From a virus (taxonomy: Duplodnaviria; Caudoviricetes), in the IMG/VR virus record IMGVR_UViG_3300046168_000001, positions 1-58,751 of that record: a DNA stretch of 58,751 bases; one strand, 5' to 3'. The notes beneath the pieces were generated by a model. It was not told where the DNA came from, did no database searches, and was given only the letters and a program-made list of their open reading frames with translations. Below, piece after piece: positions 21,067-56,735 of this stretch. Each line of letters starts with the position of its first letter. Position 1 is the first letter of the stretch. A program made the position numbers and the translations under genes.

Positions 21067-21073
21067 GGTTAAA

Positions 21074-21559: not shown

Positions 21560-21570
21560 AGGAGACTAAA

Positions 21571-30425: not shown

Positions 30426-30427
30426 TT

Positions 30428-31693
30428 ATGTCAATACCCTATCAACCAACTTTTAAGTTGCAACCTAAAACAGGTTTCCGGTATGCTTCACAACCTTTTG
30501 TACCACCAACACAACCAATTAATGCACCCCCTCCTCTTGGACTAGACGGGAGTGGTGCTGCTCCTCCACCTGTTATGGGAGCACAACAAGGTCCTGCTTA
30601 TGCTAATGACCCTTTTGGTGGTGGTGATAATCAGTTTCAAGCAAATTATAAACCTGCTGCTCAAAGCTTAGGGTACACACAGGGTACACAAAACCCAATG
30701 AATATGCTCCGAGGGGTTCCAGTTTTAGGGACAGCTATGAGTGCTATGGGTGCTTTTGATAATTTACCAGATCAAACCTATGGTACTTACGGAACTTATG
30801 ATAACTCTGGTAATGTGTTTGGTAGAGAGGGTCGTGCTTATAATCCAGTTACTGGTCGAGCCGCACAATCTTATGCAAAACCAAGTGACTGGTATGGAAG
30901 TTGGCTTGGAATTGGCACACCTGAAGGACTTGGTGGTTCTAGTAGTAGCTATGGTAAACTTAGAGCAGCAGGAGAAGGGCCAATTCAATCTGCATTAGGT
31001 AGTTATGAAAACTCTCTTTATAGACAGCAAGAGTTAAACCCTAATCTTAACACAGCACAAGCAAGAGCCGCAATGTTAAGAGGAACTGCAGACGCTAGTG
31101 GTGTTCCAACTATGCAAGGAGTAATAGAAGCTAATACTGCAATGTATGATCCAGCATATGCAGCAGCACAGGGTTTTGCAGATGACGATTTAGATCGTAT
31201 GGGTGGAACTGAAGTTACTAAAGAAATGTTAGGTTTTACAGATGCAAGACCTGATCCTGGCAAAATCAGTGGCAGGTTTGGAACTCAAGCTGGAGATGTA
31301 GCCCGTACTCAAATGGGTCTTGGAGTTATAAATCAATCAGGGCAAATAGAAACACCTACTGGAACTGTTGTTGCTATAAGTGATCCATATAATCCTGGAA
31401 AAAATATTTCATTGTTAGGAAGTACTCTTAACTCAACTGATGGTCGCTCAACTTTAAGCGCACAAAACGAATTAGCAAGAAACCAAGCATTAGATGCTCG
31501 TGCTAACCCAGAAGGTTCGGGTATGTCTGGCTTTAATGTTAGTGACGGAGATGGCGGTAGTTATCAAACAAGCTCTACAGGAGCTTCAAAAGGTATGGGC
31601 AGTCAAGCAGGACAAACTATTTACGGCATGGAAGATGAGTATGATGATCCTCCCCCTACTACTAATGATGATAATAATTCAGGAGGTAAATGA
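30428..31693 (+). CDS. Internal virion protein
   Basis: Gly/Pro-rich 421 aa; position in ejection module. Confidence 0.6.
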   Translation: MSIPYQPTFKLQPKTGFRYASQPFVPPTQPINAPPPLGLDGSGAAPPPVMGAQQGPAYANDPFGGGDNQFQANYKPAAQSLGYTQGTQNPMNMLRGVPVLGTAMSAMGAFDNLPDQTYGTYGTYDNSGNVFGREGRAYNPVTGRAAQSYAKPSDWYGSWLGIGTPEGLGGSSSSYGKLRAAGEGPIQSALGSYENSLYRQQELNPNLNTAQARAAMLRGTADASGVPTMQGVIEANTAMYDPAYAAAQGFADDDLDRMGGTEVTKEMLGFTDARPDPGKISGRFGTQAGDVARTQMGLGVINQSGQIETPTGTVVAISDPYNPGKNISLLGSTLNSTDGRSTLSAQNELARNQALDARANPEGSGMSGFNVSDGDGGSYQTSSTGASKGMGSQAGQTIYGMEDEYDDPPPTTNDDNNSGGK

Positions 31694-34600
31694 TGAAGCT
31701 TAAAAGTTTTACAAACAAAGATCGTTACGGCAACATGACCTCCTTTGAGTTTTATGAAGATTCAAATGTACCTATGATGGAAGGTATACCTGATCATCCA
31801 GGGAACCCTAAAGGCACTGACACAGTACCTGCATGGCTAACCCCTGGTGAGTTTGTAATGAACGCTGAAGCTACTCGTATGTTTGAGCCACAGATAGAAC
31901 AGATGAACAATGTTGGTCGTGCTGTACAGGCAAAACAAGGGGGTACAATCCCTGAGTATTCTGCACACGGTGGCCCTGTGTATATGGAGACAGGTGGTTT
32001 CTTAGACAAACTATTAGGGATGTTTACTAGCAGTTCAAATGAACCTACTAGAACAGCTAAAGAAGTTTTTGATGAAAGAATTCCTGCTCTTCAAAATAAA
32101 ACTAACCCCCCAACCCCTACAAGACCAGATCCGTTTATATCTAATAAGATGTATATGGATTTTCTTAAAGACAAAGAAGGGTTTCGTAATGAAGCTTATC
32201 TTGACTCTGCAGGTGTCCCAACAATTGGTTATGGGTTTACTGAAGGTGTTAAGATGGGTGACACTATTTCTGAAGAAGAAGCTAATAAAAGACTTCTTAG
32301 AGAAATGGCTAGGACCGATCAAGATTATAACAATCTTGTTTCAGCTGATCTTAATCCTAACCAACAAGCTGCTGTTAAATCATTACTATATAATATTGGT
32401 GGTCCACAGTTTGAAGTTAGTAAAGCTCGTGCTGCTCTTAATTCAGGTGACTTTGAAACCTTTAAGAAAGAAGCTGCAGAGTTTCGAATGGCTGATGGTA
32501 AGGTAATCCCAGGATTAGAAAACCGTAGGCGTGATGAGCTAGAGTTGTTCTTTAAGCCTTATAGTTCTTCTAAAGATGACTCTGATGATTATGGCGATGA
32601 TACTGCTTTGTCAGGGCCTGAAATACTTAAACAAATAGTAGATAGAGAAACCGGACCTGTTGATCCAAATGCTCCAGATATGCCTGTAGATCCAGGACTT
32701 CTTGCTGCAGTTGAAGCACAAAAAGCACAGGTCCCGCCAATGGATGGTGTTCCTCCAAAGGGTAAACCAGTAGGGGAAGGTAATAAATTTGATATCGATG
32801 GCGATGGATTTCTTTCAAAAGAAGAACTGTTAGCTGCAAGAAATCAAATGATTCCAAGTAAGGATAATGTTAAAGGAAGTGCATCTACACCTCTTAACAT
32901 TATGCCATCAGGTAATCAAATAGTTATCCAAGGCCCAGACTCTCTTATTGCTAGACAAGAGCAAATACTTCAAGATATGATTGCTGCTAATGCACCACCA
33001 TCTGAAATTTATGCTCAACAACAAAAGATTGATCGTATTAATAATATAGCTCCTAGACAAGAAGCTTTTTCTAATGTTGTAAAAGCACAAAATAAAGTAG
33101 AACCAATTAATAATCAAATAGAAGATCTTGAAACTCAAATCCAAAGGCTTGAAGCAGCAGGATTATATGACAGAGCAAATTCATTACGTTCAGAAGTAGC
33201 AAATCTTAAAGCAGAAAAACCAAAACTACAAGCAGAACTAGATGCAGCTAATGCTGCTCAAGATGATTTGTATAGAGATGCAACCTTAAGCGATGGTACT
33301 GTTATCCCTGATGTAGGAAAAGTTACTGCTGATCAACTTGAAGGGGATGGAACTATTCCTCCTCCTCCACTTGATCTAGAAGGTGGTGTAGCGCAAGGCA
33401 TGGATGATGTTCCTGCAATAAATGAGCCTCCTAAACCAGAAGAAAAATCTTCTGCAACATCTGTAACAGGGATGGATAATGAATACGATGAAGAGTTAGA
33501 TTCTACAACTCAAACTATAATTGATCGTATTATTGCTGATGAAAACTTTAAGGATGATGGAACAACATCTGGTCAAACTGAAAACAGTGCTATTAAAACT
33601 GGAGAAAATGCTGATCCTAAAGATGTAAGCAAAGCTGAGTCTTTCTTATCAGATATCTTTGGTGACCTTTTTGATAAAGACGAACTTAAACGTATGGCTA
33701 TTATGTATGTTGGTTCTCGCATGATGGGTGGATCTCATAACGGCTCTATGAACTTTGCTGCTAAACAATACGTATCACGTGTTGATAAGAAAGTAGCGAC
33801 TAAAAAAGCTGAAGAGAAAGCCTTAGCTGAAGAAAAGCGTCTTGATAAAAAGGCATTAGCTAAAGAGCGTAGGCAACTAGTTGATGATCTTATTAAAGCA
33901 GATAAAAGAACACCAGAATCAATTTCTGCTTTTGAAAAATCTGGTGACGCTAGAGATCTTGTAACTAAACCTGTTCTTACTAAACCTCCTACTTCTACAG
34001 GTAAAACTTTTACTTTTTACGATAAAGGTGGAAGAGGTAAAGTTACTGCTTTACAAATGAAAGATGATAATGGAAACATCTTTTATGTAAACTCTCAAGG
34101 TAAACAGCTTAATCCTTTTGCTTTTCATCAAGATCCATCTTTGGTTCCAAACACTCCAGAGTATGAGGATAGAGAATTAAAAATTAGTAAACAAATGAGT
34201 GATTCTCTTGAAGACTTAATTAAACGAGATACTGTTGTAGTTAATGGTAAGGAAGTAAAACCTGTTGGGTTTGCTACTGGATCTCAGGGTATGGAAGTAG
34301 CTCGTTGGATGAACAGAAATAAAATACCTGCAAACTACATGGGTAGTATTCTTGAATCCGCATATGCAGCTGCTGCAGCAGAACAGAAAGCAACTGGTAA
34401 TAAGGTTACTAACATTACTTCATATCTTGACAAAGCGTTTATTGATCGTATCCCAGGGAATGAAGGTATCTTTACACGTGAAGATGGAGAGCGTGTTGAC
34501 TCTGGAAAGGTAATGAACCTGATTGGTCAAGGTGTTTCTATCCTCAGGTCTAAACCTGGGCAAGAAAGCAAGTCTGATGAACAACTTCAGAATGATATGC

Positions 34601-34740
34601 TTGCTGCAATGCGTAAAGAATGGTTTGCTCTTGATGATAAAGTCCGTGGTGAATATAACACCAAGGGTACTAATGAGGGTGAAACAGGCTTTATGGTATT
34701 TATGCAACAGCAGATTGCTGAAGATGTAAAACAATCTTAA
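31690..34740 (+). CDS. Internal virion protein with GH24 lysozyme domain
   Basis: EGFRNEAYLDSAGVPTIGYG, YNIG, PGLENRR..E; GTDTVPAWLTPGEFV; coiled coils. Confidence 0.85.
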   Translation: MMKLKSFTNKDRYGNMTSFEFYEDSNVPMMEGIPDHPGNPKGTDTVPAWLTPGEFVMNAEATRMFEPQIEQMNNVGRAVQAKQGGTIPEYSAHGGPVYMETGGFLDKLLGMFTSSSNEPTRTAKEVFDERIPALQNKTNPPTPTRPDPFISNKMYMDFLKDKEGFRNEAYLDSAGVPTIGYGFTEGVKMGDTISEEEANKRLLREMARTDQDYNNLVSADLNPNQQAAVKSLLYNIGGPQFEVSKARAALNSGDFETFKKEAAEFRMADGKVIPGLENRRRDELELFFKPYSSSKDDSDDYGDDTALSGPEILKQIVDRETGPVDPNAPDMPVDPGLLAAVEAQKAQVPPMDGVPPKGKPVGEGNKFDIDGDGFLSKEELLAARNQMIPSKDNVKGSASTPLNIMPSGNQIVIQGPDSLIARQEQILQDMIAANAPPSEIYAQQQKIDRINNIAPRQEAFSNVVKAQNKVEPINNQIEDLETQIQRLEAAGLYDRANSLRSEVANLKAEKPKLQAELDAANAAQDDLYRDATLSDGTVIPDVGKVTADQLEGDGTIPPPPLDLEGGVAQGMDDVPAINEPPKPEEKSSATSVTGMDNEYDEELDSTTQTIIDRIIADENFKDDGTTSGQTENSAIKTGENADPKDVSKAESFLSDIFGDLFDKDELKRMAIMYVGSRMMGGSHNGSMNFAAKQYVSRVDKKVATKKAEEKALAEEKRLDKKALAKERRQLVDDLIKADKRTPESISAFEKSGDARDLVTKPVLTKPPTSTGKTFTFYDKGGRGKVTALQMKDDNGNIFYVNSQGKQLNPFAFHQDPSLVPNTPEYEDRELKISKQMSDSLEDLIKRDTVVVNGKEVKPVGFATGSQGMEVARWMNRNKIPANYMGSILESAYAAAAAEQKATGNKVTNITSYLDKAFIDRIPGNEGIFTREDGERVDSGKVMNLIGQGVSILRSKPGQESKSDEQLQNDMLAAMRKEWFALDDKVRGEYNTKGTNEGETGFMVFMQQQIAEDVKQS

Positions 34741-34758
34741 CATAGTAAGGAGAATAGT

Positions 34759-37700
34759 ATGTCAATATTCGATAGGATTGCTGAGAAACCTTCTAATTTT
34801 ATTGAAGGAACTAACATGTCCCTTTTGGATGGAGATACTGCTGTAGATAACGACACTGGTGAAAAATACAGACTTGCCAGTGTCGATACTGCAGAGATTG
34901 ATCGCTATGTTGGTGGTGAGTTTCAGGCAGGTACTGCAGGTGGTTCAACATCAACAGCGGAAGTCTCTAAACTTATGAATGAGTTTGGATATAATAATGT
35001 AAAGCCTAGACTAGATGAGAATGGAGAGATCTTAAGAGACCCAAATGGTCGTATCATTGCTGACTTTGTTAATGATCAAGGTGAAACATTTTCTAGTCGC
35101 TTACTATCTGAGGGTGTTCTTAAACCTACAAAGTGGTCTTCTAATATTGAAGCAGATATCTATCAACTTGGTCAACTTAGAAGGGATCAAAAGAATCTTC
35201 AAGAGATGGATCTTGAAAATGCACCTACTGAATCTTCATGGGATCTTGCTCGTACAAACATTGAAGAAGCCATGCGTAAAGAGGGCTTCCGTCAGTATGG
35301 TTTAAAGAAAGTTGCCCACAATGAAGAAGAACTAGCTCGTGCTCAAGCGTCTGGTGTGTCTAGTTACTATGACATGAACAGGGTTGCAAGCAGAGCTAAG
35401 GATAGGACACTTCTTAATGAAGCCCTTAACCCTTATTCTGATTCATGGGAACAGGCTTGGATTGGTGTAGATGAAGCTATGGCTGGCCTTCAAAACATGT
35501 GGGGTGATCTTACAGATAACGAATATCATTCCCGTGTAGGCAAGATGGGTGTTGAACGTAATCGCAGAAGACTTGCAGAGTATGCCACTCGTATTGTTGA
35601 TTGGCGTGATGTGGACGATATCTCTAGTGGTATTGATTACGTTGTTAACAATGCTGCTATGTCTCTCCCATACATGATGATTGCTGCAGGATCTGCTTTA
35701 GCTGCTCCTCTTGTAGGAACCGCTGCAGGTGTTGCTGGTGCAGGTGCTGCTGTAACAGGTGCTGTAACGCTAGGGGCTAGTATGCTTGCACCCTCTGCAA
35801 TTTATGCAGGTCAAACTTATAATGAAATGGAAGGTGAAAAGAATATTGGTGTTGCTGTAACTTCTGGTATTCTACAAGGTACTCTTGATCGTATTGGTGT
35901 TGGTCTTATATTTAAAACTGGTACACCAACTAAAGAAGTTCTTAACAAAGCCTTAAAAGAATTAACAAAACCTGTAGCAAAAGGTGGTAAAGGATTAACT
36001 CTTGAAGCTGCACAAGATCTATTATCTAATGCTAGTAAAAAGACTATTGCTGATTTTACCAAAGATGCTGCTAATGCTGCTAGGTCACAACTTACAGGTA
36101 AGGCTATCTTTAAAGATTTAGCAACTCGTGGAATTATTGGTGGTGCTGGTGAGGCAGTCACTGAAGGACTTCAAGAAGCCACTGCATACACTGCAGCTAC
36201 TCTTGGTTCTGATAAGGTCTTTGACTATAATGAACTTACAGACAGGATGATTGATGGTGCTATTGCAGGTGGTGTTCTTGGTACATCTTTTTCAGCCCCA
36301 GGAGCCGCTGTTAACGCAGGGATCTGGGCAGACATTGCAGTACGTCAAGCACCAGCAGACGCTAAAAGGTTGTCTGATGCTGGTCGATACGCTGAAGAAG
36401 AACGTGCTAGAAGTTCTGATAATCGTATTATTTCTATTGAAGAAGGATTAGATAATATATATGATGGTACTCAACCAACTGAAACTGTAGATCGTGAAAC
36501 AGGAGAAATAACAGAGTATGATGGTAACTATTTTGAACCCTTAGACATACGAGAACAAGAACACAAGGGTAAAAAGGTAGACCGTAGCATTGGGCAATCA
36601 ATTGCTGCAGGATTAGCTAAACTTCCTAAGTTTTGGAGAGGCTCTGTTAATTACTTATTTCCTGATGAGGTTCTTGATAAGTCAAGGTCTGCTAGATTTC
36701 TAAAAGAAGCAATGGGTGGTGGTCTTCAAAAAGTATTTAGTGGTAATGGATTTGAAAACTTTAAGTTTAACCTAGTAGCCACATATAAAAACATGGTTCC
36801 AGAGCCATCAAGTTTTTACAGTATTTGGAATGATGGTAAAATGTCCAGTGCTACAAGAAGAAAAGAAATAAGTAATGAAATATATTCTATTCTTCGTAGT
36901 GCAATTAACAATGAAACAAAAACATTCGATCCTTCTGTAATTGAAAACATGACTTTACCACAACATAAAAAGCAAGCACTTATTCTTTTAGGTTCTCAAA
37001 TGAATGAGATGTCTGATACAATGTACACAGATCAGAATAAATATGTAAAACGTGAAGGTAAGGGAAAAGAGCTTGGTTATGTTGATAACTATCTTTTAAG
37101 ATTTAAATCTCTTGATAAGGTAGCTATTAAAAAGAATCGTGCAGGTTTTGAAGCAGCCCTACAACAAGAGGCTAACCTTAGTGTTCCTCAAGCTAAAGAA
37201 CTAACTGATCAGATTTTAGATAATCCTGAGGTAAATGATCTTAGTTTACTTGATGATAGTTTTTCTGTCACTAAAGGGGGTATTGTTCCTACAGCACATA
37301 GAGAAAGGACTCTTGGGTTGTCTGAAAGGGATGCTTTTAATGAGTTTATGGAGCAAGACATCTTTGCTAACATGTCTACTGCTGCTAAGTCTGCTGCACG
37401 TTTTGTAACACATCGTAAATACATTGGTAAGAATGGTGAAATGCTAGCAGCACAATTACAACAGATGGAAAATGAGGGTGTTCCTAGAGAAAAAGTAAAT
37501 GAAATAGCTATGGGCCTTAAAGATTTTCTAGATGCTGAATCAGGAAACTATAAACGTCCAACAAGCAAAGACGGTAAGCTAGCAGTTGGAATCCAAAAGA
37601 ATCTTATGTTTGTTACAACAATAGCAACTCTAGGTCTTGCCACAGTAGCTTCTATTGTAGAGCTTGCGTTAGCAGGTCGTGCTCTTACGGCAGAACAAAT

Positions 37701-38871
37701 ATATGGTCGTAAGGGGGCTACGTCTGGTGATACAAGCTTAGCGTCTTTTGGTAAAGAATTAGCAAAGGTTATTTCAGATGCTGTTAGGTTTGCAGGGAAT
37801 ACTGCTGTTCTTAAAGATCCAGGAGTAACCAGTGAGTCACGTGGTCAAGAACTGATACGTAGTCTTGGTTATTATGAATGGGATGTTGGTGCTGCTACAG
37901 TTACTGGTGTTACAGAAATGAACCCAGTGCATGAAAAGTACTATAAGTTGTTCTTTAAAATGACAGGTCTTACAGGTTGGACAAATATGACTCGTGCTAT
38001 TCGTGGGTCTATCGCTGCTGATTATATGTTTGATCACACAAAAACTATAGCTGAAGCTAGAGAAACGGGTTTGCCTAAAACCAATGAAGTTCAAGAAGCA
38101 GAAGAAGCTTTAAGAAACATTGGTGTAAACGTTGATGATGCTGTAGAAGTCTATCGTGCAGATCAAAGGGCAGGACCTAATGAACTTCTGTCTCCAGAGT
38201 TAGAGGCAAAACGTGAAGCTAATATGAGAACAGGTGCATTTAATTTTATTAATGACGCTGTTGCTTTACCTATGGTGGCTAACAGACCAATGATCTATCA
38301 AGACCCAAGGTTTGCTTTGTTCACACAGTTTCAAGGATTTATTGCTACATTTACAGCTAATCATATCCCTAAGTTATGGGGTGAGTATGTTAAACGTGGT
38401 ACTCCTTCAATGAAGTACAATGCTTTTGCTATTATGTGTACAATGATTATGCTTGGATTTGCATCTCAATATCTTAAAGACTTGATTAAGTTTGGAGATA
38501 GAGATGAAGATGAATTGAAAACACTTGGTAATCCATACCTTGATACAGGTGAGTATGTCCAACGTGGTATACGTGCGTCTGGATTGATGGGTGTTGGAGA
38601 ACGTGTCTTTGATCAGTTCTTTCCTTTGTATGAACAAAGGTCTGATAATGCATTAGAGTGGGCTTGGAATACAGTAAGTGGTGAAGCACCTGCTGCAGGA
38701 ACAGTTAAACGTGTTGCAAAGACATTAACTAATCTCGGCACTGGTGATTTTGGTGGTGCTGCTCAACAGGCAAGTAAACTAGTTCCGTTTATTGGTATCG
38801 TTGGTGGTGCTGAAAGACTTTCAAACTTATACGATTGGGATTATAAAGGGGAAGAGAATGGCAGTAATTAG
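34759..38871 (+). CDS. Large internal virion protein with N-terminal SNase/thermonuclease-like domain
   Basis: LLDGDT, YRLASVDTAE, DPNGRIIA, LLSEG; Gly/Ala TM-like region and GEAVTEGLQE motif typical of ejection proteins. Confidence 0.7.
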   Translation: MSIFDRIAEKPSNFIEGTNMSLLDGDTAVDNDTGEKYRLASVDTAEIDRYVGGEFQAGTAGGSTSTAEVSKLMNEFGYNNVKPRLDENGEILRDPNGRIIADFVNDQGETFSSRLLSEGVLKPTKWSSNIEADIYQLGQLRRDQKNLQEMDLENAPTESSWDLARTNIEEAMRKEGFRQYGLKKVAHNEEELARAQASGVSSYYDMNRVASRAKDRTLLNEALNPYSDSWEQAWIGVDEAMAGLQNMWGDLTDNEYHSRVGKMGVERNRRRLAEYATRIVDWRDVDDISSGIDYVVNNAAMSLPYMMIAAGSALAAPLVGTAAGVAGAGAAVTGAVTLGASMLAPSAIYAGQTYNEMEGEKNIGVAVTSGILQGTLDRIGVGLIFKTGTPTKEVLNKALKELTKPVAKGGKGLTLEAAQDLLSNASKKTIADFTKDAANAARSQLTGKAIFKDLATRGIIGGAGEAVTEGLQEATAYTAATLGSDKVFDYNELTDRMIDGAIAGGVLGTSFSAPGAAVNAGIWADIAVRQAPADAKRLSDAGRYAEEERARSSDNRIISIEEGLDNIYDGTQPTETVDRETGEITEYDGNYFEPLDIREQEHKGKKVDRSIGQSIAAGLAKLPKFWRGSVNYLFPDEVLDKSRSARFLKEAMGGGLQKVFSGNGFENFKFNLVATYKNMVPEPSSFYSIWNDGKMSSATRRKEISNEIYSILRSAINNETKTFDPSVIENMTLPQHKKQALILLGSQMNEMSDTMYTDQNKYVKREGKGKELGYVDNYLLRFKSLDKVAIKKNRAGFEAALQQEANLSVPQAKELTDQILDNPEVNDLSLLDDSFSVTKGGIVPTAHRERTLGLSERDAFNEFMEQDIFANMSTAAKSAARFVTHRKYIGKNGEMLAAQLQQMENEGVPREKVNEIAMGLKDFLDAESGNYKRPTSKDGKLAVGIQKNLMFVTTIATLGLATVASIVELALAGRALTAEQIYGRKGATSGDTSLASFGKELAKVISDAVRFAGNTAVLKDPGVTSESRGQELIRSLGYYEWDVGAATVTGVTEMNPVHEKYYKLFFKMTGLTGWTNMTRAIRGSIAADYMFDHTKTIAEARETGLPKTNEVQEAEEALRNIGVNVDDAVEVYRADQRAGPNELLSPELEAKREANMRTGAFNFINDAVALPMVANRPMIYQDPRFALFTQFQGFIATFTANHIPKLWGEYVKRGTPSMKYNAFAIMCTMIMLGFASQYLKDLIKFGDRDEDELKTLGNPYLDTGEYVQRGIRASGLMGVGERVFDQFFPLYEQRSDNALEWAWNTVSGEAPAAGTVKRVAKTLTNLGTGDFGGAAQQASKLVPFIGIVGGAERLSNLYDWDYKGEENGSN

Positions 38872-41800
38872 AGGTGCTCCAAGCACAACACAAAAAGCTG
38901 TAGAGAAACTACAAGAAAGTATGGTAACTGCAGCCCCTGAAGTAGATCCTAAGATGGTACAGCAAGAAGGGGAGGCTCCGGTCTCTCCTACTTCTGGAAG
39001 TATTTTTGATAGGATTGCTGCACAACCTGTGGCTGAGGCTACACAAGACAACGTAGAACAACAAGCAGAGCAAGTAGGTGAACAAGTACAAGAGGCTGTA
39101 GTAGAGGGATCTCCTGTAGCCCCTGAACTTGCTGCTATTGCAACTGCTGAGTTAGAGTCCAACCCTAAACGTCTTAATCAAAAACAACTAGAACGGGCTG
39201 AAGCAAAAAAGAATATTGTTAAACCGCTTAATGAACGTACTAAAGAAGATTCAGGTCAGTGGTTTTATAATGCTGTTATAGCAGAAGATGCTGCTTCGGA
39301 TGTAACATCTGGGCCTATGTCAGACGGTGGCCTTATAGCTCGTGCTAGGAATTTGTCTAATGGTGTTTATGGTGGTACAGCTTCTCAAGTTCAAGCTGAA
39401 ATCGAACAAAACGGTAAACCTCCAAATGGGCTGTTTGGTATTGCTGGATTAACAGAAGCAGCGACAAACAATGTTGCTCTTAATGTTTTAGAACGTCTTA
39501 ATGCTGTAGATAGAAATGCTGGTAAACCAACAAGAGATTTTCTTCAAACAATGTCTGTTGTTGCTGAAGATACTATTTCACAACTATCATTTAGTGAGCC
39601 GACATCTCTTGATATAAACCCTGGAGAAACTGCTATCAATGATGATGGTGAAGTTCAAAACGTAACAGAAGAAGAGATAGCCCAATCGACACCCTTTTCA
39701 AAAGCTAAAGCCAATCGTGATTTAGGAACACGAATAAGCAGAGAGTTCCAAAGGTTGCGTAATAAAGCAGAGGGTAGGCCAACAGATGAATACCAAGACA
39801 TAAGCGCAGATGAGGCTATTGCTCTTGGAGATATGGCAAAGGAGTTATATTGGGCAGCAAATAAAACTGTTGATGGTAAAAACTTTCTTGTAAGACAAAA
39901 AGCAAATGATGGTCAAGTGTATTTTACTTTAACCAAACATGGTTCTGATATGCTAAAGCAAGGGGCAGCTAGACGTAAACGCATGTTCCCTGGAAAACAA
40001 GTAAGGACACAAAAGAATTCAGGTGTAAAACTTACAGGTGAAGCAGAAAAAGCTACTCGTAAAGTGTCTTCTAGAGCAGGTCGTCTTACAGGAACCCAAG
40101 AGCTTAATCAAGCAATGGCTAATCTAAACAAGGTAGCTAACGTTGTTGATCCTCGTAGGCTTAAGATTCTATATCTTACAGCACTCCCTGTGTTACTTGG
40201 ACAAGCGGCCCCTGATACTCTTTATGCATCTCTAAATCATGTTGGTCAAGATAAATTAAATAAGTTTCTAGCTAAGGCTGCTGCTAAAACAGGAAGCCCA
40301 ACAGAACAAGAGACTGCAAACGCAACACAAGAATATAATGATTTAATAAATGATTTGGCTCAAGACTTGCGTGGTATTGCCTTAGAGCGTAAGGGGGCTA
40401 ATTACCTTACATATTATGTTCAAGCATTCAATACTCGCATTGCTCCGCAACAATCCACTCTTGATCCTACAACATCTAAAACTGCTAGGTTTGTAACTCG
40501 TAATGCTAAACCTTCATTGGTAGATTCAAAGACAGGAACGGGAAGACGTATTGAACGTAACCTTCGACAGATGTATGCTATGCATCTTGTAAAAGGGGCG
40601 GGGCCTAAGTTTCCAGCAGAAAGAGAAAGTATGCTAGAGATTGCTACACCACAACTAGTTAAGTGGGGCATATCCTTACGGGCTGCTCTTGATGGTGTAC
40701 CTGATTCTAAAATTGAAGAAATATCTCAAGCTATTGAAGATGGGATTTCAGTTAATGATCCAAATTTTCCACAGATCCCACAGCTACCTTCTGATTTAGA
40801 TCCAGAGTTGTTAGAAACGATTAAGAAACAAGGGGAAGATGGTCAAGCATATATTGATGGACTTATTGACTTTGCAAATTATTATGAAGTAAAGACTCGT
40901 GCTGCTTCGGATAAATTAGCAGGTAGGTCAGACGGTAACTATCAGTTTCCTTCTTTCTTTAATGCGTATATGGATGGTAAGACTAATGGTCTAGCATCTA
41001 ATGGTATGCAAATGGGATCTATGTCTGTTGCTCAAAGAACAGGTGTACTAAGAAGTCAAAACACTTCTGCTATTGATAATAATGAAGACATACGTGACGA
41101 GTTAGCAAACCTTTTATTAGCTAGTTTAGATGATGGATTTGATGGGCATACAGGTGAAGTTGGTGATTACTTGCATAATATTGCAACTGAAGTGTTTAGT
41201 ATTCGTGCATTGAATAAGGCCACCACCATGACGTTTGGTTATGGGAAAGAATTAAATTCTTTTAAACGTGACATTCGTGAATACTTAGATCTTATGGAAC
41301 AAGAAAAAGCAGCAGAAGGATCTAACTATAATGAGGTAGCATTAGCTGTTGAAGCCCTTACGTCTGATACTAAAGATGGAAGAGATGCCTTGGTTGAAAT
41401 ACTTCATGCTAAGTATGTACCATCTCTTGTTCAGGTTCTTGACAAGAGGGCCTTGCAGTCTCGTAATATTATGCGTGGGGCTGCTATGCTTCATGCTCTT
41501 TCTAATGAGTTGTTTACTATTGAATCTCCTACAGGGACTTCTCTTAATCTTGGTGGATCTGCTACTACAGGATACATTGAGGGAGATGCTTACAAGGTTT
41601 GGTCTGATGGTAAATATAGCTTAAGAAAGGTAGGGCGTTTTGGAGATGAACTAACTGCAGCTGCTCCAAGGCTTATGGATGACGTAAGTGTTCCTGGAGA
41701 AAGGGCGTATGGTGGATCTGTACCAGCCCCTGTTCAATCTCTAGATGCTGCTACGGTCATTCGTACAGCTAGTGGGAAGTCTTGGTCTAGGCTTGAAGCA

Positions 41801-42415
41801 GCTTCTGGTGGTGCTCCATATCTTCATACTATCTATGATGCCTTTAAGGTTGATGCTATGGGATATGATGTTGTATTTGAAGAAGTCAATCAAAACTGGT
41901 TAGATTTAAATATGCAGTGGTCATATCTTGAAAAGACTTCTGATGCATTAAACAATCTTAGATCTAAGTTTGCTGAAAGATACAGTGGACGAGACCCTAA
42001 TGATGTTCTTACAGCAAACGAATGGAGCATGGCTGGATACCTTTTAGAACAAACAAAAGTAGAAGGTAAGTCAATAAGCTCAAACCTTATGAATAAACTT
42101 TCTAAGGTGCTTGATCTACCCGTGGTTGATAAGAATAATAAACTTATTGAAAAACATCCAGAAGTAGAGGAAGCTACAAAGCGAATTGAAGACGCTATGA
42201 TTGCTGCTGGTTATAACCCTAAAAGCCCACCTGCACAACCTACTGTGCGACACATAAGGGCTTTTGTTCAGGCGTTTAGTAAAGAACTAAACATGCAAGG
42301 CAGACTTAATAAGATGATTGCAGAGACTAACAGAGATAAGGCTGTTCTCAAATCTGAAATAGAAAAGCAGATTTCAGACGGTAACTTTGGTGTGGCCCAA
42401 TATATGGATCACTAA
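38858..42415 (+). CDS. Second single-subunit (T7-superfamily) RNA polymerase, probably virion-encapsidated
   Basis: Motif A YMDGKTNG, motif B RALNKATTMTFGYG, VQSLDA, motif C HTIYDAF in correct order; last gene of the ejection module; start placed at MAVIRG. Confidence 0.85.
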   Translation: MAVIRGAPSTTQKAVEKLQESMVTAAPEVDPKMVQQEGEAPVSPTSGSIFDRIAAQPVAEATQDNVEQQAEQVGEQVQEAVVEGSPVAPELAAIATAELESNPKRLNQKQLERAEAKKNIVKPLNERTKEDSGQWFYNAVIAEDAASDVTSGPMSDGGLIARARNLSNGVYGGTASQVQAEIEQNGKPPNGLFGIAGLTEAATNNVALNVLERLNAVDRNAGKPTRDFLQTMSVVAEDTISQLSFSEPTSLDINPGETAINDDGEVQNVTEEEIAQSTPFSKAKANRDLGTRISREFQRLRNKAEGRPTDEYQDISADEAIALGDMAKELYWAANKTVDGKNFLVRQKANDGQVYFTLTKHGSDMLKQGAARRKRMFPGKQVRTQKNSGVKLTGEAEKATRKVSSRAGRLTGTQELNQAMANLNKVANVVDPRRLKILYLTALPVLLGQAAPDTLYASLNHVGQDKLNKFLAKAAAKTGSPTEQETANATQEYNDLINDLAQDLRGIALERKGANYLTYYVQAFNTRIAPQQSTLDPTTSKTARFVTRNAKPSLVDSKTGTGRRIERNLRQMYAMHLVKGAGPKFPAERESMLEIATPQLVKWGISLRAALDGVPDSKIEEISQAIEDGISVNDPNFPQIPQLPSDLDPELLETIKKQGEDGQAYIDGLIDFANYYEVKTRAASDKLAGRSDGNYQFPSFFNAYMDGKTNGLASNGMQMGSMSVAQRTGVLRSQNTSAIDNNEDIRDELANLLLASLDDGFDGHTGEVGDYLHNIATEVFSIRALNKATTMTFGYGKELNSFKRDIREYLDLMEQEKAAEGSNYNEVALAVEALTSDTKDGRDALVEILHAKYVPSLVQVLDKRALQSRNIMRGAAMLHALSNELFTIESPTGTSLNLGGSATTGYIEGDAYKVWSDGKYSLRKVGRFGDELTAAAPRLMDDVSVPGERAYGGSVPAPVQSLDAATVIRTASGKSWSRLEAASGGAPYLHTIYDAFKVDAMGYDVVFEEVNQNWLDLNMQWSYLEKTSDALNNLRSKFAERYSGRDPNDVLTANEWSMAGYLLEQTKVEGKSISSNLMNKLSKVLDLPVVDKNNKLIEKHPEVEEATKRIEDAMIAAGYNPKSPPAQPTVRHIRAFVQAFSKELNMQGRLNKMIAETNRDKAVLKSEIEKQISDGNFGVAQYMDH

Positions 42416-42472
42416 AATAAAAAAAAATACCCCTACTAGAATCCAATTAAGGAAACTAGTAGGGGCTTTTTT
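42416..42472. terminator. Bidirectional terminator between convergent arms
   Basis: A-run, CCCCTACTAG...CTAGTAGGGG stem (42430-42465), T-run. Confidence 0.88.
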
Positions 42473-42720
42473 ATTTAAGCATACCGTTTTTAGCCAGTAG
42501 CTCTCTGATGTCACGCTCAGCATCTTTCTTTATCTGTGCAGCTGTTTCTGGTTCCATACCTTCTTCTACTGCTCGTTTATAATTATACTGTAACATGTCT
42601 TCGTTAATCTTGTTTGAATATGCAGACCCAGGGTCTAGCCCAAAGGTCTCTACATACTCCATGTCATCTACTGGTGCTCCGCGTAGAGCCAAGTAGTTGT
42701 ACGATTTCTTATCGCTCATT
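42471..42720 (-). CDS. Hypothetical protein downstream of RNAP
   Basis: AGGAG RBS before MSDKKSYNY. Confidence 0.65.
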
Positions 42721-42729
42721 AATTTCTCC

Positions 42730-45048
42730 TTAGGCAAAGAAGTAATCAGATTCATAGATCTGTGTTACGTCTAGGTTGCCTAGCTCTGGTTGCTCTACGT
42801 CAAGGTTAGTAGCATCAGTAATGATGTTTTGTTGTATCAAGTCGTAGTAATTTTCTTTATCATACATTTCGATAAAGCTCTGTTTAGTCCTTGCTAATAG
42901 TGCTTCGACATCACATGCATGAGTGCTAAAGGAATCATGGACTGCTCCGAAATCACCGTTCCATTCCTCAATAACCAATGCCATATGACTGGCATCCTGA
43001 CTGTGAATGTAGTTAGGACTGACACCACACATAAATCCGCGAATGTCTGGGGTCTTCGTAGGTACTCTTGCCACATGGTTCACTCCTTTGTGTCCTTTAG
43101 ACTGAGACTTATAGCCACTTATAGTACCTCTACATTTTCGTGTAGCTGTAGTATAGTTCTGATAGATTACCTTAAACCCTGATGGTGTTACCCATGAGAG
43201 GTCGCTTCTACCGTTGCCATGTATCAGTTTACTTTTGTACGATCTAAGAAGTACTGTGAGTGTGTTGAGGTGTTCAATCTCTTCATCAGTTTTATCTTTC
43301 TTTGTGTACAATTCTTTCTGATCCTTGACCAGTTGTTTGTATTCTGGCCCAGCAGGTTCATTTTGATTATTGTATTTTAAATATTCACCTATCTCATACT
43401 GTGCTAGTTTTTGCAAGTATGCCATAGTATGCAGGGGTCCTGGGCATACAAGGTTGATTGCTTTAATTAGTAGCTTAGCTAGTTTATCACAGTCATCTTG
43501 TGTTATCCCATACTCTATGTGAAAGTCCTCTGCTTTACAATCAAAGAACATATTCTCAGCAATCTTCTTTGCACCTGCTGAGTATGCTCTTGTCATACTA
43601 CCACGTTTAGATATAGCTTTTCTAATATGTTTCATTGGCATCTGATCAAGAATGTCTTTAAGTCTTTCATCAGTTGTCAAATGGTACAGCTGCTTAGCAG
43701 TCTGAACATAGAAGTCATGTTGTATATCTACTGGTATTAGCCCTACAAGCCTCCCTGTCTGGCTGTCTTTAGAAATAGCACCTAGATGCTGCCAACCATT
43801 GTTAGACCCGTCTATGGGCACTGGAAGGTGGCTAACGTGGATTCTATTATCTTTGACTGCTCTTTGGTAATCAAACCACTCAAAGCAACAGGCTAGGAAT
43901 GACACAGATTTCTCTGCTATATCTGCTACGATACCTCTCCTACCCATTTCGACAATAACTTCCATGTTATCGTTAGTCCACCTTACCCTGTCCTCAAGGG
44001 TAAACTTATCTACGCTTATAGACTCTAGCTTTTCTTCTTCTAGGTATCCTGCGTAGTCAGCCTCACACCAGTCAGGTATCTCATCTATGTTATAACTCTG
44101 GTTGAATGTATTGGCTGTGTGTACAGCTAACCAGAAGAGACCGTCCTCTGTCATAGGTTTACCTCTAGCAAAGGTCATCATACCTCTGGCTAGGTCAGAC
44201 CCTTGATAGTTTAGGAAGGACTCTGAGTAGTATAGCCTACCCCTATAGTCTGCTTGCATGAACTGATAGAAGACATCGTGATCATATAGCAGCTTAGCTT
44301 TAGTAGTAATGAAACCCCACTCTACTAGTTTGCTTCTTCGTTTCATTTCTTTAGCGTCATTATCATCTATTGGTGTTGATGACACAAATGAATCTTTGTT
44401 TTCTATAAGAGTATCATACACACGCTGGTTAATTCTCCATCCAGTGCGTTGTAGTTTGTTTACTGAAGTAACCCAGGGGGTTCCAATCATAGGTTCAAAC
44501 CTTGCGTTGTCCTCTTCAGTCCACTCTTTAATTACAGGTTCACCATCTGGCTGTATGATTTTTGATATTCTATCCGGTCTTTCTAACACAGTATGTGTCA
44601 AAGAAATCCTCATCATTGCCTCTGGTATGTCAGCAAGATCTATCCACTTAGCTGTAGCTGATACAATATAACTAGTATCCCTTGTCTTTGGGTAGTATAT
44701 ATCTATGTACCCACAGTTATAGAATGCCTCTATGAAGAGATCACCCAACCTCACATGCATGTTCCAGGGTAACCCAGGGGGTTCCCTTTTGATTACACGT
44801 GCTATGCGTTGACCTATTGCTGTAGATACAGCTGTCAACTGTGCAGTCCCTGCAGGACTATCTGAGGTATCGTAGGTGAATCTCATTTGTATTGTTTGGA
44901 AAGCCACATTTATTAGTCGTGGCATTTCCTCTTTGTATTCTTTATACAATCTCAGAAGTACACCACCTGAGTTTGCCTTAGGGTTATTCGGATTAACCCT
45001 TGAGACCTTATCAACTAGGTACTCTGAGATGTTGTCGAATGGATTCAT
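42730..45048 (-). CDS. T7-like DNA-directed RNA polymerase (772 aa)
   Basis: DYRGRLY, QGSDLARG, PIDGSNNGWQHL, RKAISKRGSMTRAYS, WVTPSGF, PNYIHSQDA, VHDSF. Confidence 0.96.
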   Translation of the reverse strand: MNPFDNISEYLVDKVSRVNPNNPKANSGGVLLRLYKEYKEEMPRLINVAFQTIQMRFTYDTSDSPAGTAQLTAVSTAIGQRIARVIKREPPGLPWNMHVRLGDLFIEAFYNCGYIDIYYPKTRDTSYIVSATAKWIDLADIPEAMMRISLTHTVLERPDRISKIIQPDGEPVIKEWTEEDNARFEPMIGTPWVTSVNKLQRTGWRINQRVYDTLIENKDSFVSSTPIDDNDAKEMKRRSKLVEWGFITTKAKLLYDHDVFYQFMQADYRGRLYYSESFLNYQGSDLARGMMTFARGKPMTEDGLFWLAVHTANTFNQSYNIDEIPDWCEADYAGYLEEEKLESISVDKFTLEDRVRWTNDNMEVIVEMGRRGIVADIAEKSVSFLACCFEWFDYQRAVKDNRIHVSHLPVPIDGSNNGWQHLGAISKDSQTGRLVGLIPVDIQHDFYVQTAKQLYHLTTDERLKDILDQMPMKHIRKAISKRGSMTRAYSAGAKKIAENMFFDCKAEDFHIEYGITQDDCDKLAKLLIKAINLVCPGPLHTMAYLQKLAQYEIGEYLKYNNQNEPAGPEYKQLVKDQKELYTKKDKTDEEIEHLNTLTVLLRSYKSKLIHGNGRSDLSWVTPSGFKVIYQNYTTATRKCRGTISGYKSQSKGHKGVNHVARVPTKTPDIRGFMCGVSPNYIHSQDASHMALVIEEWNGDFGAVHDSFSTHACDVEALLARTKQSFIEMYDKENYYDLIQQNIITDATNLDVEQPELGNLDVTQIYESDYFFA

Positions 45049-49908: not shown

Positions 49909-50191
49909 AAGCTTTTCTTTCTAGGTAGTGTTTCTCTTTTACTGACCTGATTGTGTGACAATTAGCGCAACGTATGTCGCACTTACGAGCCTCTTTGATA
50001 ATGTTCTTGATACTACAAGAAGCCATTCTATGAGGCGTATATATTTTATCTGTTGGATCTCTGTGATCCCATTGAAGAGCATAGGGGTTTTCATTGTAAC
50101 CGCAATCAATACAGCCTTTAGCAATTTTGTATCGGTCTAGTATTTTTCTACGTCTTCTTATTTTTAGTATTTGTTTTTGGTTGCAAGTCAC
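49892..50191 (-). CDS. HNH-type Zn-binding endonuclease
   Basis: GCIDCG...LQWDHRDP...KCDIRCANCH. Confidence 0.75.
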   Translation of the reverse strand: MTCNQKQILKIRRRRKILDRYKIAKGCIDCGYNENPYALQWDHRDPTDKIYTPHRMASCSIKNIIKEARKCDIRCANCHTIRSVKEKHYLERKAYEISV

Positions 50192-51205: not shown

Positions 51206-51221
51206 TATATACCCCTTATAG
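51206..51221 (+). promoter_or_regulatory. Phage RNAP promoter copy pointing at the terS-like gene
   Basis: Exact TATATACCCCTTATAG. Confidence 0.75.
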
Positions 51222-51270
51222 AATTAATACCTTATTGATGACGAGGCTTGTCCTCGGCATAAAGATATAC

Positions 51271-51286
51271 CTATAAGGGGTATATG
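51271..51286 (-). promoter_or_regulatory. Phage RNAP promoter copy pointing at the replication operon
   Basis: Reverse complement reads CATATACCCCTTATAG (15/16). Confidence 0.75.
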
Positions 51287-51304
51287 GAATTTATGGAGAG
51301 AACA

Positions 51305-51709
51305 ATGCCTTTTAATCCAAAAAGTCTCAAGAACTTAAATGGTTCTTGGACTACTGAGTCTGCTAGAAAAGCACAGGCCAAGGGTGTAGAAACCCGCAAG
51401 GCCAATAAAGAAGCTAGAGAAGCTGCTAAAATGTCTATGGCTGAATGGAAGCTATACAAAACAGATGTTCTTGATCAGACTAATATGACATCTTTGGATG
51501 TCCTTAAGATAATGATGATTAAGGCTGTGTCAAAAGATGACATGGATACTGCAGTAGACATTGCAAAAACTTTAGCAGAATTTGAAGCACCTAAACTTGC
51601 ACGTGTCGATCAGACCAATGTAGAAATACAGGCTGAAGATTTATCTGATGAAGAACTGCAAGAACTATTAGATCAAGCAAGTGCCGAGGCGAGTGCCCCG
51701 CGACACTGA
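51305..51709 (+). CDS. Terminase small subunit-like protein (inverted single-gene island)
   Basis: NPKSLKNL...E.ARKAQAKG..RKA N-terminus, AEFEAPKL, LSDEEL; own promoter and terminator. Confidence 0.6.
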   Translation: MPFNPKSLKNLNGSWTTESARKAQAKGVETRKANKEAREAAKMSMAEWKLYKTDVLDQTNMTSLDVLKIMMIKAVSKDDMDTAVDIAKTLAEFEAPKLARVDQTNVEIQAEDLSDEELQELLDQASAEASAPRH

Positions 51710-51757
51710 TGCATTTTGTCGGTTACCCAAAAAAGATGCCTATGCGTTTTGTCGGTT
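51709..51757. repeat. Tandem ATGCRTTTTGTCGGTT motif (51709-51724, 51742-51757); third copy at 55988-56003
   Basis: Three intergenic copies with 15-16/16 identity. Confidence 0.8.
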
Positions 51758-51761
51758 AGCT

Positions 51762-51816
51762 AAAAGAAAATAAAAGAGTCCCTAGATACACATTGTAGTG
51801 TACCTAGGGGCTTTTT
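51762..51816. terminator. Bidirectional terminator
   Basis: A-rich run, AGTCCCTAG-ATACAC...GTGTAC-CTAGGGGCT, T-run; between convergent genes. Confidence 0.82.
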
Positions 51817-55979: not shown

Positions 55980-56114
55980 AAGTCTCCATGCATTTTGTCG
56001 GTTCGACTAAAATTATCCGAGAGTAGCCCAAGGTTTCCCAAGGCTATCTCTGATGTTTGTACAAGGCTCCAATAGAGCAGGGTGGGCTACTATTTAGCCC
56101 TGCGAACATAAAGT

Positions 56115-56127: not shown

Positions 56128-56139
56128 TCAATAATAAAT

Positions 56140-56730: not shown

Positions 56731-56735
56731 TAGAA

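Follow-up and report, generated by a model that had tools for sequence, protein, structure and literature searches.

Why does one podophage encode two single-subunit RNA polymerases (RNAPs), and could one of them enter the host cell together with the phage DNA? The question is raised by the window, i.e. the whole stretch of 58,751 nt analysed here, which represents the complete genome of a marine podophage, ~58.5 kb in size and distantly related to roseophage CRP-7. When the terminal repeat is accounted for, the genome unit amounts to 58,471 bp. The two RNAPs comprise 1185 aa (divergent) and 772 aa (T7-like), and both ORFs were found where the initial annotation of this DNA had placed them. 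The relevant features are:

1-280 and 58472-58751: exact terminal repeat of 280 nt
29320-31693, plus strand: three Cys-free genes (181, 186 and 421 aa), head of a Cys-poor block
31690-34740, plus strand: internal virion protein of 1016 aa without Cys, phage lysozyme domain at residues 161-283
34759-38871, plus strand: internal-virion ejection-type protein, IVP-D/gp16-like, 1370 aa, 1 Cys
38858-42415, plus strand: divergent single-subunit RNAP, candidate virion RNAP, 1185 aa
42429-42463, no strand assigned: bidirectional terminator-like hairpin between the convergent arms, read from the sequence
42471-42755, minus strand: ORF located 3' of the T7-like RNAP gene, 94 aa
42730-45048, minus strand: T7-like RNAP, 772 aa, last large gene of the replication arm

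Two polymerase genes at the junction of the virion and replication arms

The identity of the 772-aa protein as a T7-like RNAP, proposed before, was confirmed by matches to PF00940 (E 1.7e-56; Pfam RNA_pol, 192 bits vs. a gathering cut-off of 22) and phrog_414 (E 3.4e-101). It carries the motifs DGSNNG, RKAISKRGSMTRAYSAG and HDSF and is the window's true PF00940 member. Its gene had been described as the last of the replication operon, about 13 kb from the right end. The distance is in agreement (13.7-16 kb) and the gene is indeed the last large one of this arm, but it is followed by the conserved 94-aa ORF, which is present in 43 of 52 related loci and has no family match.

The divergent RNAP gene closes the virion arm on the plus strand; between it and the opposing replication arm lies the terminator-like hairpin, which has a 10-bp stem (CCCCTACTAG/CTAGTAGGGG) with an A-run on the 5' side and a T-run on the 3' side. 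In RNA library X19, one contig stops at 42425 and another begins at 42484, a weak hint of termination. The ATG at 38858 is preceded by a Shine-Dalgarno-like site (AAGGGG, 6-12 nt upstream), and the reading frame overlaps the end of the 1370-aa gene (38871) by 14 nt. As stated earlier for this locus, the gene follows those of apparent internal virion or ejection proteins: the 1016-aa product has a lysozyme domain (Pfam E 1.5e-32) and the 1370-aa ejection-type product matches PHROG 'virion structural protein' families (E 1e-21) as well as CRP-7 gp34. The 181-, 186- and 421-aa products are presumed to be small ejection or internal proteins; a family scan of the latter two yielded no match.

Fold and active site of the 1185-aa protein

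The 1185-aa protein had no Pfam match at E up to 0.01, PF00940 included, and neither its single sequence nor its profile matched PDB chains. A PHROG RNAP match was marginal (phrog_414, E 9e-4), and the ESM Atlas feature neighbours include PF00940 clusters (score 0.95). In the predicted model, residues 102-1183 adopt an RNAP fold, consisting of a right-hand polymerase fold and the RNAP-specific N-terminal domain, while the ~100 N-terminal residues are predicted to be disordered. Motifs A, B and C are present in the order reported by the initial annotation, i.e. YMDGKTNG (703-710), RALNKATTMTFGYG (783-796) and HTIYDAF (990-996). Key residues are R527, D706 in motif A, R783, K787, Y795 and G796 in motif B, and D994 in motif C. 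Both catalytic Asp residues (D706, D994) are present. According to DSSP, a strand ends with D706 and a β-hairpin carries Y993-D994 at its tip, both within blocks of high pLDDT.

An alignment of 46 family members with a mean column identity of 33% revealed that D706-G-K-T-N-G, K787, M791-T-F, Y795-G796, Y993-D994-A995 and R527 are invariant, with R783 being conserved in ≥90% of the sequences. Because they are invariant at such low identity, motifs A, B and C do not reflect chance. Alignment with the T7-like family by hhalign (E 1.2e-3) pairs D706 with T7 D537, D994 with D812 and R527 with R425. For calibration, the T7-like family and N4 mini-vRNAP, which are known homologues, give an E-value of 0.084 by the same method. 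At the T/DxxGR motif of T7, the family consensus FNGRIAPQQS is aligned to DWRGRVYA. G526 is kept in at least 90% of the family, but the 1185-aa protein itself carries T at 526 and lacks a T/D at position -3. The match of motif B rests on its pattern, because hhalign misaligned this stretch: RALNKATTMTFGYG has the exact spacing R-x3-K-x7-Y-G, the T7 residues of which we take to be R627, K631, Y639 and G640.

Given the predicted fold and the invariant catalytic residues, it is strongly supported that the 1185-aa protein is a genuine compact single-subunit RNAP, as initially suspected, and it is probably active. The model and the conserved residues show it to be a very divergent member of the single-subunit RNAP fold superfamily with an intact catalytic site. 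The PF00940 enzymes of T7, the Autographiviridae and mitochondria are shorter by ~300 residues, and T7-type RNAPs are encoded among early or replication genes, whereas the divergent RNAP is encoded in a virion operon, lacks Cys and has no PF00940 match.

Relatives, cysteine content and comparison with N4 gp50

The divergent polymerase has at least 392 representatives at 50% identity, the homologues encountered are all unnamed 'hypothetical proteins', and family members measure ~1070-1350 aa. Synteny was assessed in 52 IMG/VR loci carrying a homologue. The convergent T7-like RNAP, the primase/helicase and the rest are present in all of them. An IVP-D-like gene is located upstream in 39 loci, and the remaining 13 begin at or within ~840 nt of the RNAP match.

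No Cys is found among the 1185 residues of the divergent RNAP, and the block 29320-42415 encodes a single Cys in 4359 aa, as compared to 0.71% genome-wide. This extends to the family, in which 5 Cys occur among 53,118 residues and 41 of the 46 sequences contain none, whereas the T7-like RNAPs of the same contigs contain 468 Cys in 33,837 aa (1.4%) and none of 45 is Cys-free. Median identities to the window in the 52 loci are 34% for the divergent RNAP and 39% for IVP-D, compared to 56% for the T7-like RNAP, 66% for the primase and 65% for DNAP. In two loci (L004 and L050) the T7-like RNAP is 98% identical, while the divergent RNAP is only 44% and 39% identical, respectively. These sequence comparisons show that the divergent RNAP diverges with the ejection module and not with the replication module.

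The closest cultured relative of the window phage is CRP-7 (MK613349; gp30, gp33), whose gp33 is the positional counterpart of the divergent RNAP. There is no significant sequence or profile similarity between gp33 and the 1185-aa RNAP, and modelling of gp33 gave low confidence (pLDDT 60.8) with a poor palm; we regard it as a probable, even more divergent member of this kind. In the CRP-7 paper (PMC6918029; Zhang et al. 2019, mSystems), one RNAP is annotated and gp33 is hypothetical.

Like the divergent RNAP gene, gp50 of N4 (Schitoviridae) terminates the virion arm beside the ejection proteins, and its product has 0 Cys in 3500 aa; absence of Cys from N4 vRNAP is also stated in PMC10747016. 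Structures are available for mini-vRNAP (PDB 2po4, 3c2p, 3c3l, 3c46) and for whole gp50 (9pnq, 9pnt). However, the polymerase of gp50 (~3500 aa) is flanked on both sides by N- and C-terminal domains, which the N4 literature links to ejection, packaging and regulation (PMC13434306; Hardies 2016); the divergent RNAP lacks these domains and has one third of the size of gp50. The part resembling IVP-D is encoded by its own gene upstream of the divergent RNAP, but forms a C-terminal fusion in N4 gp50 according to Hardies 2016. A fused long form, i.e. a homologue of 2075-5000 aa, was not found, which is weak evidence, and similarity between the divergent RNAP and gp50 was not detectable by BLASTP (E >3) or hhalign (E 0.26). 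As partner of the divergent RNAP, the window encodes a T7-like RNAP in one piece, as compared to the split gp15/gp16 RNAPII in N4, and the phage backbone is not N4-like, being that of a ~58-kb relative of CRP-7. Finally, packaging, hairpin promoters (short stem, 3-nt loop) at the entering genome end and dependence on SSB and gyrase characterise the N4 enzyme and are putative for the divergent RNAP.

Proposed packaging and early transcription, and alternative roles

As its gene is the last of the operonic ejection cluster, like that of N4 gp50, and as the protein is Cys-free, co-diverges with this module and shows the same layout in 52 of 52 relatives, the divergent RNAP is, on this indirect evidence, probably packed in the virion and ejected with the DNA. 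The explanation that we favor as a whole, with a probability of roughly 65%, is that the injected divergent RNAP starts early transcription and the T7-like RNAP takes over, by analogy with the polymerase module of N4 gp50. Accordingly worded as a sequence of steps, the divergent RNAP would be made late as last cistron of the ejection-protein operon, packed into the capsid beside the internal virion proteins and released into the host along with the DNA. It would transcribe the early genes on the minus strand at the right end before phage protein synthesis and perhaps help to pull the genome into the cell. The 772-aa T7-like RNAP, made from the replication arm, would then take over and most likely read the operons headed by the 16-nt motif TATATACCCCTTATAG. 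The T7-like RNAP gene is located 13.7-16 kb from the presumed entering end and its expression would demand a long early transcript, an observation that speaks against this explanation. To account for the late position of the T7-like RNAP gene by an injected RNAP, as proposed earlier, is a weak argument, since this gene is likewise found at the end of the early/DNA-metabolism region in phiKMV-like phages, which have no second RNAP and rely on host RNAP to read their early and middle genes.

Candidate promoters are the following:

68-83, plus strand: 16-nt motif TATATACCCCTTATAG, candidate promoter of the T7-like RNAP
1991-2006, 22613-22628, 51206-51221 and 58539-58554 (terminal-repeat duplicate), plus strand: further copies of this motif
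58444-58459, 51271-51286 (1 mismatch) and 50028-50043 (2 mismatches), minus strand: further copies of this motif
58664-58684, plus strand: GAA-triloop DNA hairpin (ATCCC-GAA-GGGAT) with 5-bp stem, in the terminal repeat, also at 193-213

The window contains 8 matches to TATATACCCCTTATAG, with 0.79 expected. Exact copies occur in 7 loci, in all of which the identity of the T7-like RNAP is at least 85%, and more distant relatives have their own variants ending in TTATAG, TTTAG or CTATAG. The T7-type motif is additionally found ahead of the first early genes (58444, minus strand), so that it is not obvious how the two enzymes would share the work. The GAA-triloop hairpins stand upstream of two early gene blocks, and in the copy at 56111-56131 the outer A-T pair is replaced by G-C, a compensatory change in the stem. 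As a promoter of the divergent RNAP, the hairpin is no more than a candidate. It was absent from the presumed early regions of all four more distant relatives and is confined to close relatives of the early arm, including phages with a divergent RNAP of ~38% identity; it may alternatively represent a 5'-UTR or terminator-like element. A conserved promoter of the divergent RNAP was not found family-wide.

This latter result would also fit a packaged enzyme that, once ejected, serves chiefly as primase or DNA-end transcriptase in initiating replication or circularising the genome, leaving the early genes to host RNAP as in T7 and phiKMV. Host RNAP and the T7-like RNAP alone might suffice for the T7-type motif and the early genes, as in known Autographiviridae. 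On the other hand, the right end shows no enrichment of sigma-70-like sites (8 vs. 6.9 expected, none before the first early gene), which is a weak argument, and N4 vRNAP, the sole known ejected enzyme of this fold, is an early transcriptase; we therefore regard such a role as improbable. Somewhat less remote, albeit still unlikely, is an intracellular, non-virion enzyme acting as late or auxiliary transcriptase of the same infection cycle, which might boost late transcription, prime replication or read a special gene set. The conserved active site points to an enzyme and the flanking domains of gp50 are missing; two intracellular transcription systems, RNAPII and host RNAP, co-exist in N4 (review PMC4496689). 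However, as last cistron of a ~20-kb operon behind the ejection proteins, the protein would appear only late in the cycle. The near-absence of Cys in the family, as opposed to 1.4% in cytoplasmic T7-like RNAPs, resembles N4 gp50 and the ejection proteins, and in exchange as well as divergence the RNAP goes along with the ejection module.

Alternatively, the protein might have retained the fold of an RNAP but no longer polymerise RNA, being instead a structural or ejection protein that serves e.g. as DNA-binding plug, or as motor or anchor for genome entry. Its extreme divergence without Pfam match and its fast evolution, as observed for structural proteins, would agree with this idea, as would the altered motifs in the CRP-7 gp33 family, which has D-A-R-Q-S-N for D-G-x-x-x-G and swapped basic residues in motif B. 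Yet, the catalytic Asp residues, Lys/Tyr/Gly of motif B and the Arg of the GR motif are invariant in 46 of 46 sequences at 33% identity, and such an invariant active site is hard to explain without catalysis. Even the gp33 family retains the motif A Asp, H-D-A in motif C and Y-G-K in motif B in 22 of 22 sequences, and a loss of catalysis has little to recommend it.

Returning to early transcription by an injected divergent RNAP, a wider version is tentative and may well fail: a relay of two RNAPs without host RNAP could operate across a widespread clade of marine podophages, probably including CRP-7. In this relay, an ejected Cys-free RNAP of 1.1-1.3 thousand residues would initiate early transcription at structured sites in the DNA close to the entering end and pull the genome inside, the T7-like RNAP would read the rest, and giant N4 gp50 would represent a special, fused form of a design that is older and more common, with the ejection scaffold (IVP-D) and the polymerase as separate proteins. 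To our knowledge, experimental evidence of single-subunit RNAPs carried in virions is limited to the giant gp50 of N4-like phages. The initial annotation cautioned that marine podoviruses with two RNAPs may already be described; none was found in the literature searched, CRP-7 having been published with one RNAP, and our search returned no description of a compact second phage RNAP of this kind. By analogy, the divergent RNAP may represent a compact, free-standing variant of the N4-type virion RNAP, new to the literature searched. Annotation by sequence profiles misses this entire polymerase family. If the packaging reading is true, injection of a transcriptase would be a more general podovirus strategy, present in unrelated and abundant marine phages, and the ~130 kDa enzyme would provide a minimal model for packing a folded enzyme and its passage through the tail channel. 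It would also offer biochemistry and biotechnology a new and compact Cys-free RNAP family, and if CRP-7 gp33 is of the same kind, the idea of a virion RNAP would be directly testable in a cultured phage.

Genome layout and the second polymerase gene

Nucleotides 1-280 and 58472-58751 of the window form an exact 280-nt terminal repeat, and since both ends match exactly the window represents a complete phage genome with a unit of 58,471 bp. The repeat is located in the non-coding gap between two divergent arms, so the record may stop at the real ends of the genome and not at an arbitrary point where a circular assembly was opened. G+C content is ~40%; searches of the window detected no tRNAs and no Rfam match. 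The relevant features are as follows.

Features of the window
338-42415 (+): plus-strand arm, beginning with terL (338), followed by portal, scaffold, capsid, tail, fibre and ribonucleotide reductase genes and then genes for very large proteins
34759-38871 (+): 1370-aa ejection-type protein (IVP-D/gp16-like)
38858-42415 (+): 1185-aa protein, the second RNAP
42429-42463: junction hairpin where the two arms meet, 10-bp stem, A-run on one side and T-run on the other
right end inward to 42471 (-): minus-strand arm, with small early ORFs, gp2.5-like SSB, MazG, DNA polymerase, exonuclease, primase/helicase and T7-like RNAP
42730-45048 (-): 772-aa T7-like RNAP
56736-57248 (-): early gp2.5-like ssDNA-binding protein (phrog_112, E 1.1e-15)

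The gene for the large subunit of ribonucleotide reductase (22662-24407, +) lies within the late/virion arm, immediately behind a copy of a 16-nt motif, and its homologue is placed in the replication arm instead in some relatives.

The 772-aa product matched Pfam RNA_pol (E 1.7e-56) and phrog_414 (E 3.4e-101), in agreement with the initial annotation, which had called a T7-like RNAP here. The initial annotation had also read polymerase motifs A, B and C in the 1185-aa protein, and all three strings are indeed present in that order. This protein gave only a marginal RNAP match in PHROG (E 9e-4), no match in Pfam, no RNAP among PDB sequences in single-sequence and profile searches, and nothing at E 1e-5 when 50,697 phage records were searched by tblastn. 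BLASTP against the T7-like RNAP of the window, gp33 of Roseobacter phage CRP-7 and gp50, the virion RNAP of N4, found nothing significant, and hhalign of its family against the single sequences of T7 RNAP, N4 mini-vRNAP, N4 gp15 and gp16 was likewise insignificant. The 1185-aa protein nevertheless heads a sizeable unannotated family: 263 proteins were retrieved at E <=1e-3 (candidates scored within a collection of 5.8 billion proteins), and an exhaustive profile search yielded 392 representatives at 50% identity, 233 of them with E <=1e-30. Full-length members mostly comprise 1070-1350 aa, and every named one is annotated as hypothetical. Across 46 aligned sequences, whose mean column identity is 33%, the residues that never vary include R527, D706-G-K-T-N-G, K787, M791-T-F, Y795-G796 and Y993-D994-A995. 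One MAG-derived cluster member carries the label 'Bacteroidetes bacterium', which was not adopted as a host call; the genes have Shine-Dalgarno-like sites and the host of the nearest isolate is a roseobacter.

An AlphaFold2 model based on the 46-sequence alignment reached a pLDDT of 82.6 and a pTM of 0.80, values below 50 being confined to residues 1-88 and two short loops. A Foldseek search of the PDB yielded 73 matches at E <=1e-3, and among the matches listed (ranks 1-50) all are single-subunit RNAPs, including those of T7 (E 3.2e-13), N4 (mini-vRNAP, E 1.2e-10) and yeast and human mitochondria. All VIA-align alignments cover model residues ~102-1185, and as three references tied, the structure does not single out a nearest branch. 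Alignments of the two enzymes are not reliable at such divergence; when profiles were compared, the family of the 1185-aa protein aligned collinearly over 549 columns (E 1.2e-3) with T7 and the T7-like RNAPs of this phage group, pairing D706 with T7 D537, D994 with D812 and R527 with R425. Weak sequence signals are to be expected in this superfamily, since even two accepted homologues, the T7-like family and N4 mini-vRNAP, reach only E 0.084 by the same method. According to DSSP, D706 ends a strand and is followed by a helix, while Y993-D994 occupies the tip of a beta-hairpin, both blocks having pLDDT values of 86-90. In the model this arrangement is the usual palm geometry, and D706 and D994 are predicted from secondary structure and alignment to be close in space. 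A palm with both Asp residues, on which the initial annotation had made its reading depend, is thus present in the model of the 38858-42415 product. Neighbours by language-model features in the ESM Atlas include clusters with 88-100% PF00940 members (score 0.95). Taken together, the window almost certainly encodes a second, intact RNAP.

Proposed packaging and ejection of the second RNAP

Four independent kinds of indirect evidence point to the second RNAP being a virion protein, namely operon position, layout, lack of cysteine and co-divergence. Its gene starts at an ATG behind a Shine-Dalgarno-like site and shares its first 14 nt with the end of the 1370-aa gene, and the closest promoter-like motif copy upstream is at 22613, so the enzyme is made alongside, and later than, the tail and ejection proteins. 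Ahead of it are the genes for a 1016-aa protein carrying a lysozyme domain and for the 1370-aa protein, which belongs to PHROG 'virion structural protein' families, has no Pfam match at E <=0.01 and is homologous to CRP-7 gp34, its N-terminus (34759-35200, +) being conserved with gp34 (LxDGDT...). All 52 IMG/VR loci with a second-RNAP homologue carry the convergent T7-like RNAP, the primase/helicase and the rest; a homologue of the 1370-aa protein lies upstream in 39 of them, and the other 13 loci begin at, or no more than ~840 nt from, the RNAP match.

The second RNAP contains no cysteine, and the six proteins encoded by 29320-42415 contain one in 4359 residues, compared with a genome average of 0.71% and with 1.3-2.1% in the T7-like RNAP, primase, DNA polymerase and ribonucleotide reductase of the window. 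Across the second-RNAP family there are 5 Cys in 53,118 residues (41 of 46 sequences are Cys-free), as against 468 in 33,837 residues of the T7-like RNAPs from the same contigs, of which none of 45 is Cys-free. N4 gp50 has 0 Cys in 3500 residues, a property of N4 vRNAP also mentioned in PMC10747016. We interpret this as avoidance of cysteine by ejected proteins. Median identities to the window over the 52 loci are 34% for the second RNAP and 39% for the 1370-aa protein, but 56%, 66% and 65% for T7-like RNAP, primase/helicase and DNA polymerase, respectively, and the T7-like RNAP is the better conserved polymerase in 49 of the 52. In the related loci L004 and L050 the T7-like RNAP is 98% identical, whereas the second RNAP has dropped to 44% and 39% and the 1370-aa protein to 53% and 45%. 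Judged from these identities, the second RNAP gene travels with the ejection module.

The layout resembles that of N4, in which gp50 is also the last gene of the virion arm, comes after gp53, gp52 and gp51 and points towards the end of the replication arm; of these, PMC13434306 describes gp51 and gp52 as ejection proteins. What counts against the virion reading is that the large portions flanking the polymerase in gp50, N- and C-terminal, are missing from the second RNAP. The C-terminal domain of gp50 is an IVP-D homologue according to Hardies et al., whereas in the window the IVP-D-like protein is encoded by a separate upstream gene. A weak search for fused second-RNAP forms of 2075-5000 aa found none, and neither BLASTP nor hhalign detected sequence similarity between the second RNAP and gp50. 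By size, domain make-up and sequence the second RNAP falls outside the gp50 family, although by analogy it would be predicted to work like N4 mini-vRNAP. The initial annotation had further proposed that an injected RNAP explains the late position of the T7-like RNAP gene. This argument is weak, as phiKMV-like phages show such a placement without any need for an injected enzyme. Its observation of a polymerase at 38858-42415 stands, and the model shows the RNAP fold with both Asp residues, while its interpretation as an injected stand-alone mini-vRNAP is partly supported, the packaging part indirectly. We estimate a probability of roughly two in three that the second RNAP is packaged and ejected to start infection.

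Candidate promoters of the two polymerases

The 16-mer TATATACCCCTTATAG occurs eight times in the window (<=3 mismatches; 0.79 expected), at operon heads and on both strands. Exact copies are present in seven related loci, in every one of which the T7-like RNAP is at least 85% identical, while in six of the seven the second RNAP is only ~37-44% identical. More distant relatives have repeated variants of their own (...GTCCCTTTAG, ...GTTCCTTATAG, ...GTCCCTATAGG). Such a distribution would fit a promoter of the T7-like RNAP, and in its TATAG end the motif is similar to T7 and SP6 promoters. At 51206-51286 two copies face each other 50 nt apart, a pair that is retained in seven related loci and flanks 51284-51709, the sole plus-strand gene inside the minus-strand arm, for which there is no family match.

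Upstream of the two early gene blocks, and oriented for leftward transcription, are two GAA-triloop hairpins, one in the terminal repeat (ATCCC-GAA-GGGAT) and one at 56111-56131 (GTCCC-GAA-GGGAC), with a compensatory change between them. Both are similar to the N4 vRNAP promoters, hairpins with a 3-nt loop as described in PMC4496689. Nevertheless, the link of the hairpin to the second RNAP as its promoter is weak. The exact hairpin motif occurs in 17 IMG/VR stretches, all of which but one (L060) are near-identical to the window in their flanks too, and phages with the exact hairpin include some whose second RNAP is only ~38% identical. One copy scores terminator-like in the minus-strand reading, and that in the terminal repeat also lies within the 5' leader of the terL transcript. 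A role as family-wide promoter was not supported: the exact CCCGAAGGG core is missing from five more distant genomes, with one-mismatch matches at control level. Of four more distant relatives, none has a hairpin like that of the window in its early region; a C-GNA-G triloop on a stem of >=5 bp is absent from three of these regions and occurs once, unrepeated, in the fourth (L082).

The link is weakened further by the distant relative L084 (G005), whose early region carries a different GC-rich palindromic hairpin motif (core CACGCAAGCGTG) three times, at 6869, 8382 and 11751, with one copy 25 nt past a T7-type promoter-like motif. The window itself carries a 24-nt motif with core GTAACCGACAAA, in minus-strand reading, at these positions:
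51709-51732
51742-51765
55988-56011
This core is found twice each in the distant relatives L083 and L084, whose T7-type promoter motif differs; the motif could serve as an origin, as a promoter or as a conserved site for a regulator.

Between the early gene blocks lies an ORF-free stretch of ~750 nt (55990-56735), which is kept in close relatives, is covered by RNA-library contigs and has no Rfam match. The gp2.5-like SSB gene next to it has the top contig depth in three of four RNA libraries. N4 vRNAP requires SSB at its hairpin promoters (PMC4496689), and by analogy a pairing of SSB with the second RNAP may be worth testing.

Occurrence, novelty and the CRP-7 counterpart

The phage or near relatives of it were detected in many seawater metagenomes and also in metatranscriptome libraries, whose contigs span the replication and early arm. 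Two runs from a single study cover this arm and leave the second RNAP gene bare, save for a trace in one bin; nothing is inferred from the gap, since relatives conserve that gene far less well and expression cannot be read from contigs. One contig of the RNA library X19 crosses from the ejection-protein gene into the second RNAP gene and stops at 42425, and the next starts at 42484, weakly suggesting that the junction hairpin is where both arms end.

The pair of a free-standing compact virion-type RNAP and a T7-like RNAP seems new, as no description was found in the literature covered, which included few subscription journals. A survey of N4-like viruses dropped vRNAP-like matches below 2500 aa (PMC10654107) and would thus have missed the second-RNAP family.

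The nearest cultured phage is CRP-7, with a 38% identical RNAP, a 58.1-kb genome and the same two-arm layout. PMC6918029 presents it as a podovirus belonging to a new group, with ORF30 as its one RNAP. The position of the second RNAP is matched there by the following gene.

Counterpart in CRP-7 (L001)
17859-21566 (-): gp33, 1235 aa, annotated as hypothetical

No significant similarity between gp33 and the second RNAP was detected, either directly or with the family profiles in hhalign, and the gp33 family gave no significant hhalign match to N4 or to the T7-like family either. Within the 22-member gp33 family, D-A-R-x-S-N, K-x3-R-x7-Y-G-K and H-D-A are invariant and similarly spaced, and 21 of the 22 members are Cys-free. 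On these grounds gp33 is probably a further diverged single-subunit RNAP of the same functional kind. If so, CRP-7 would provide a cultured test system.
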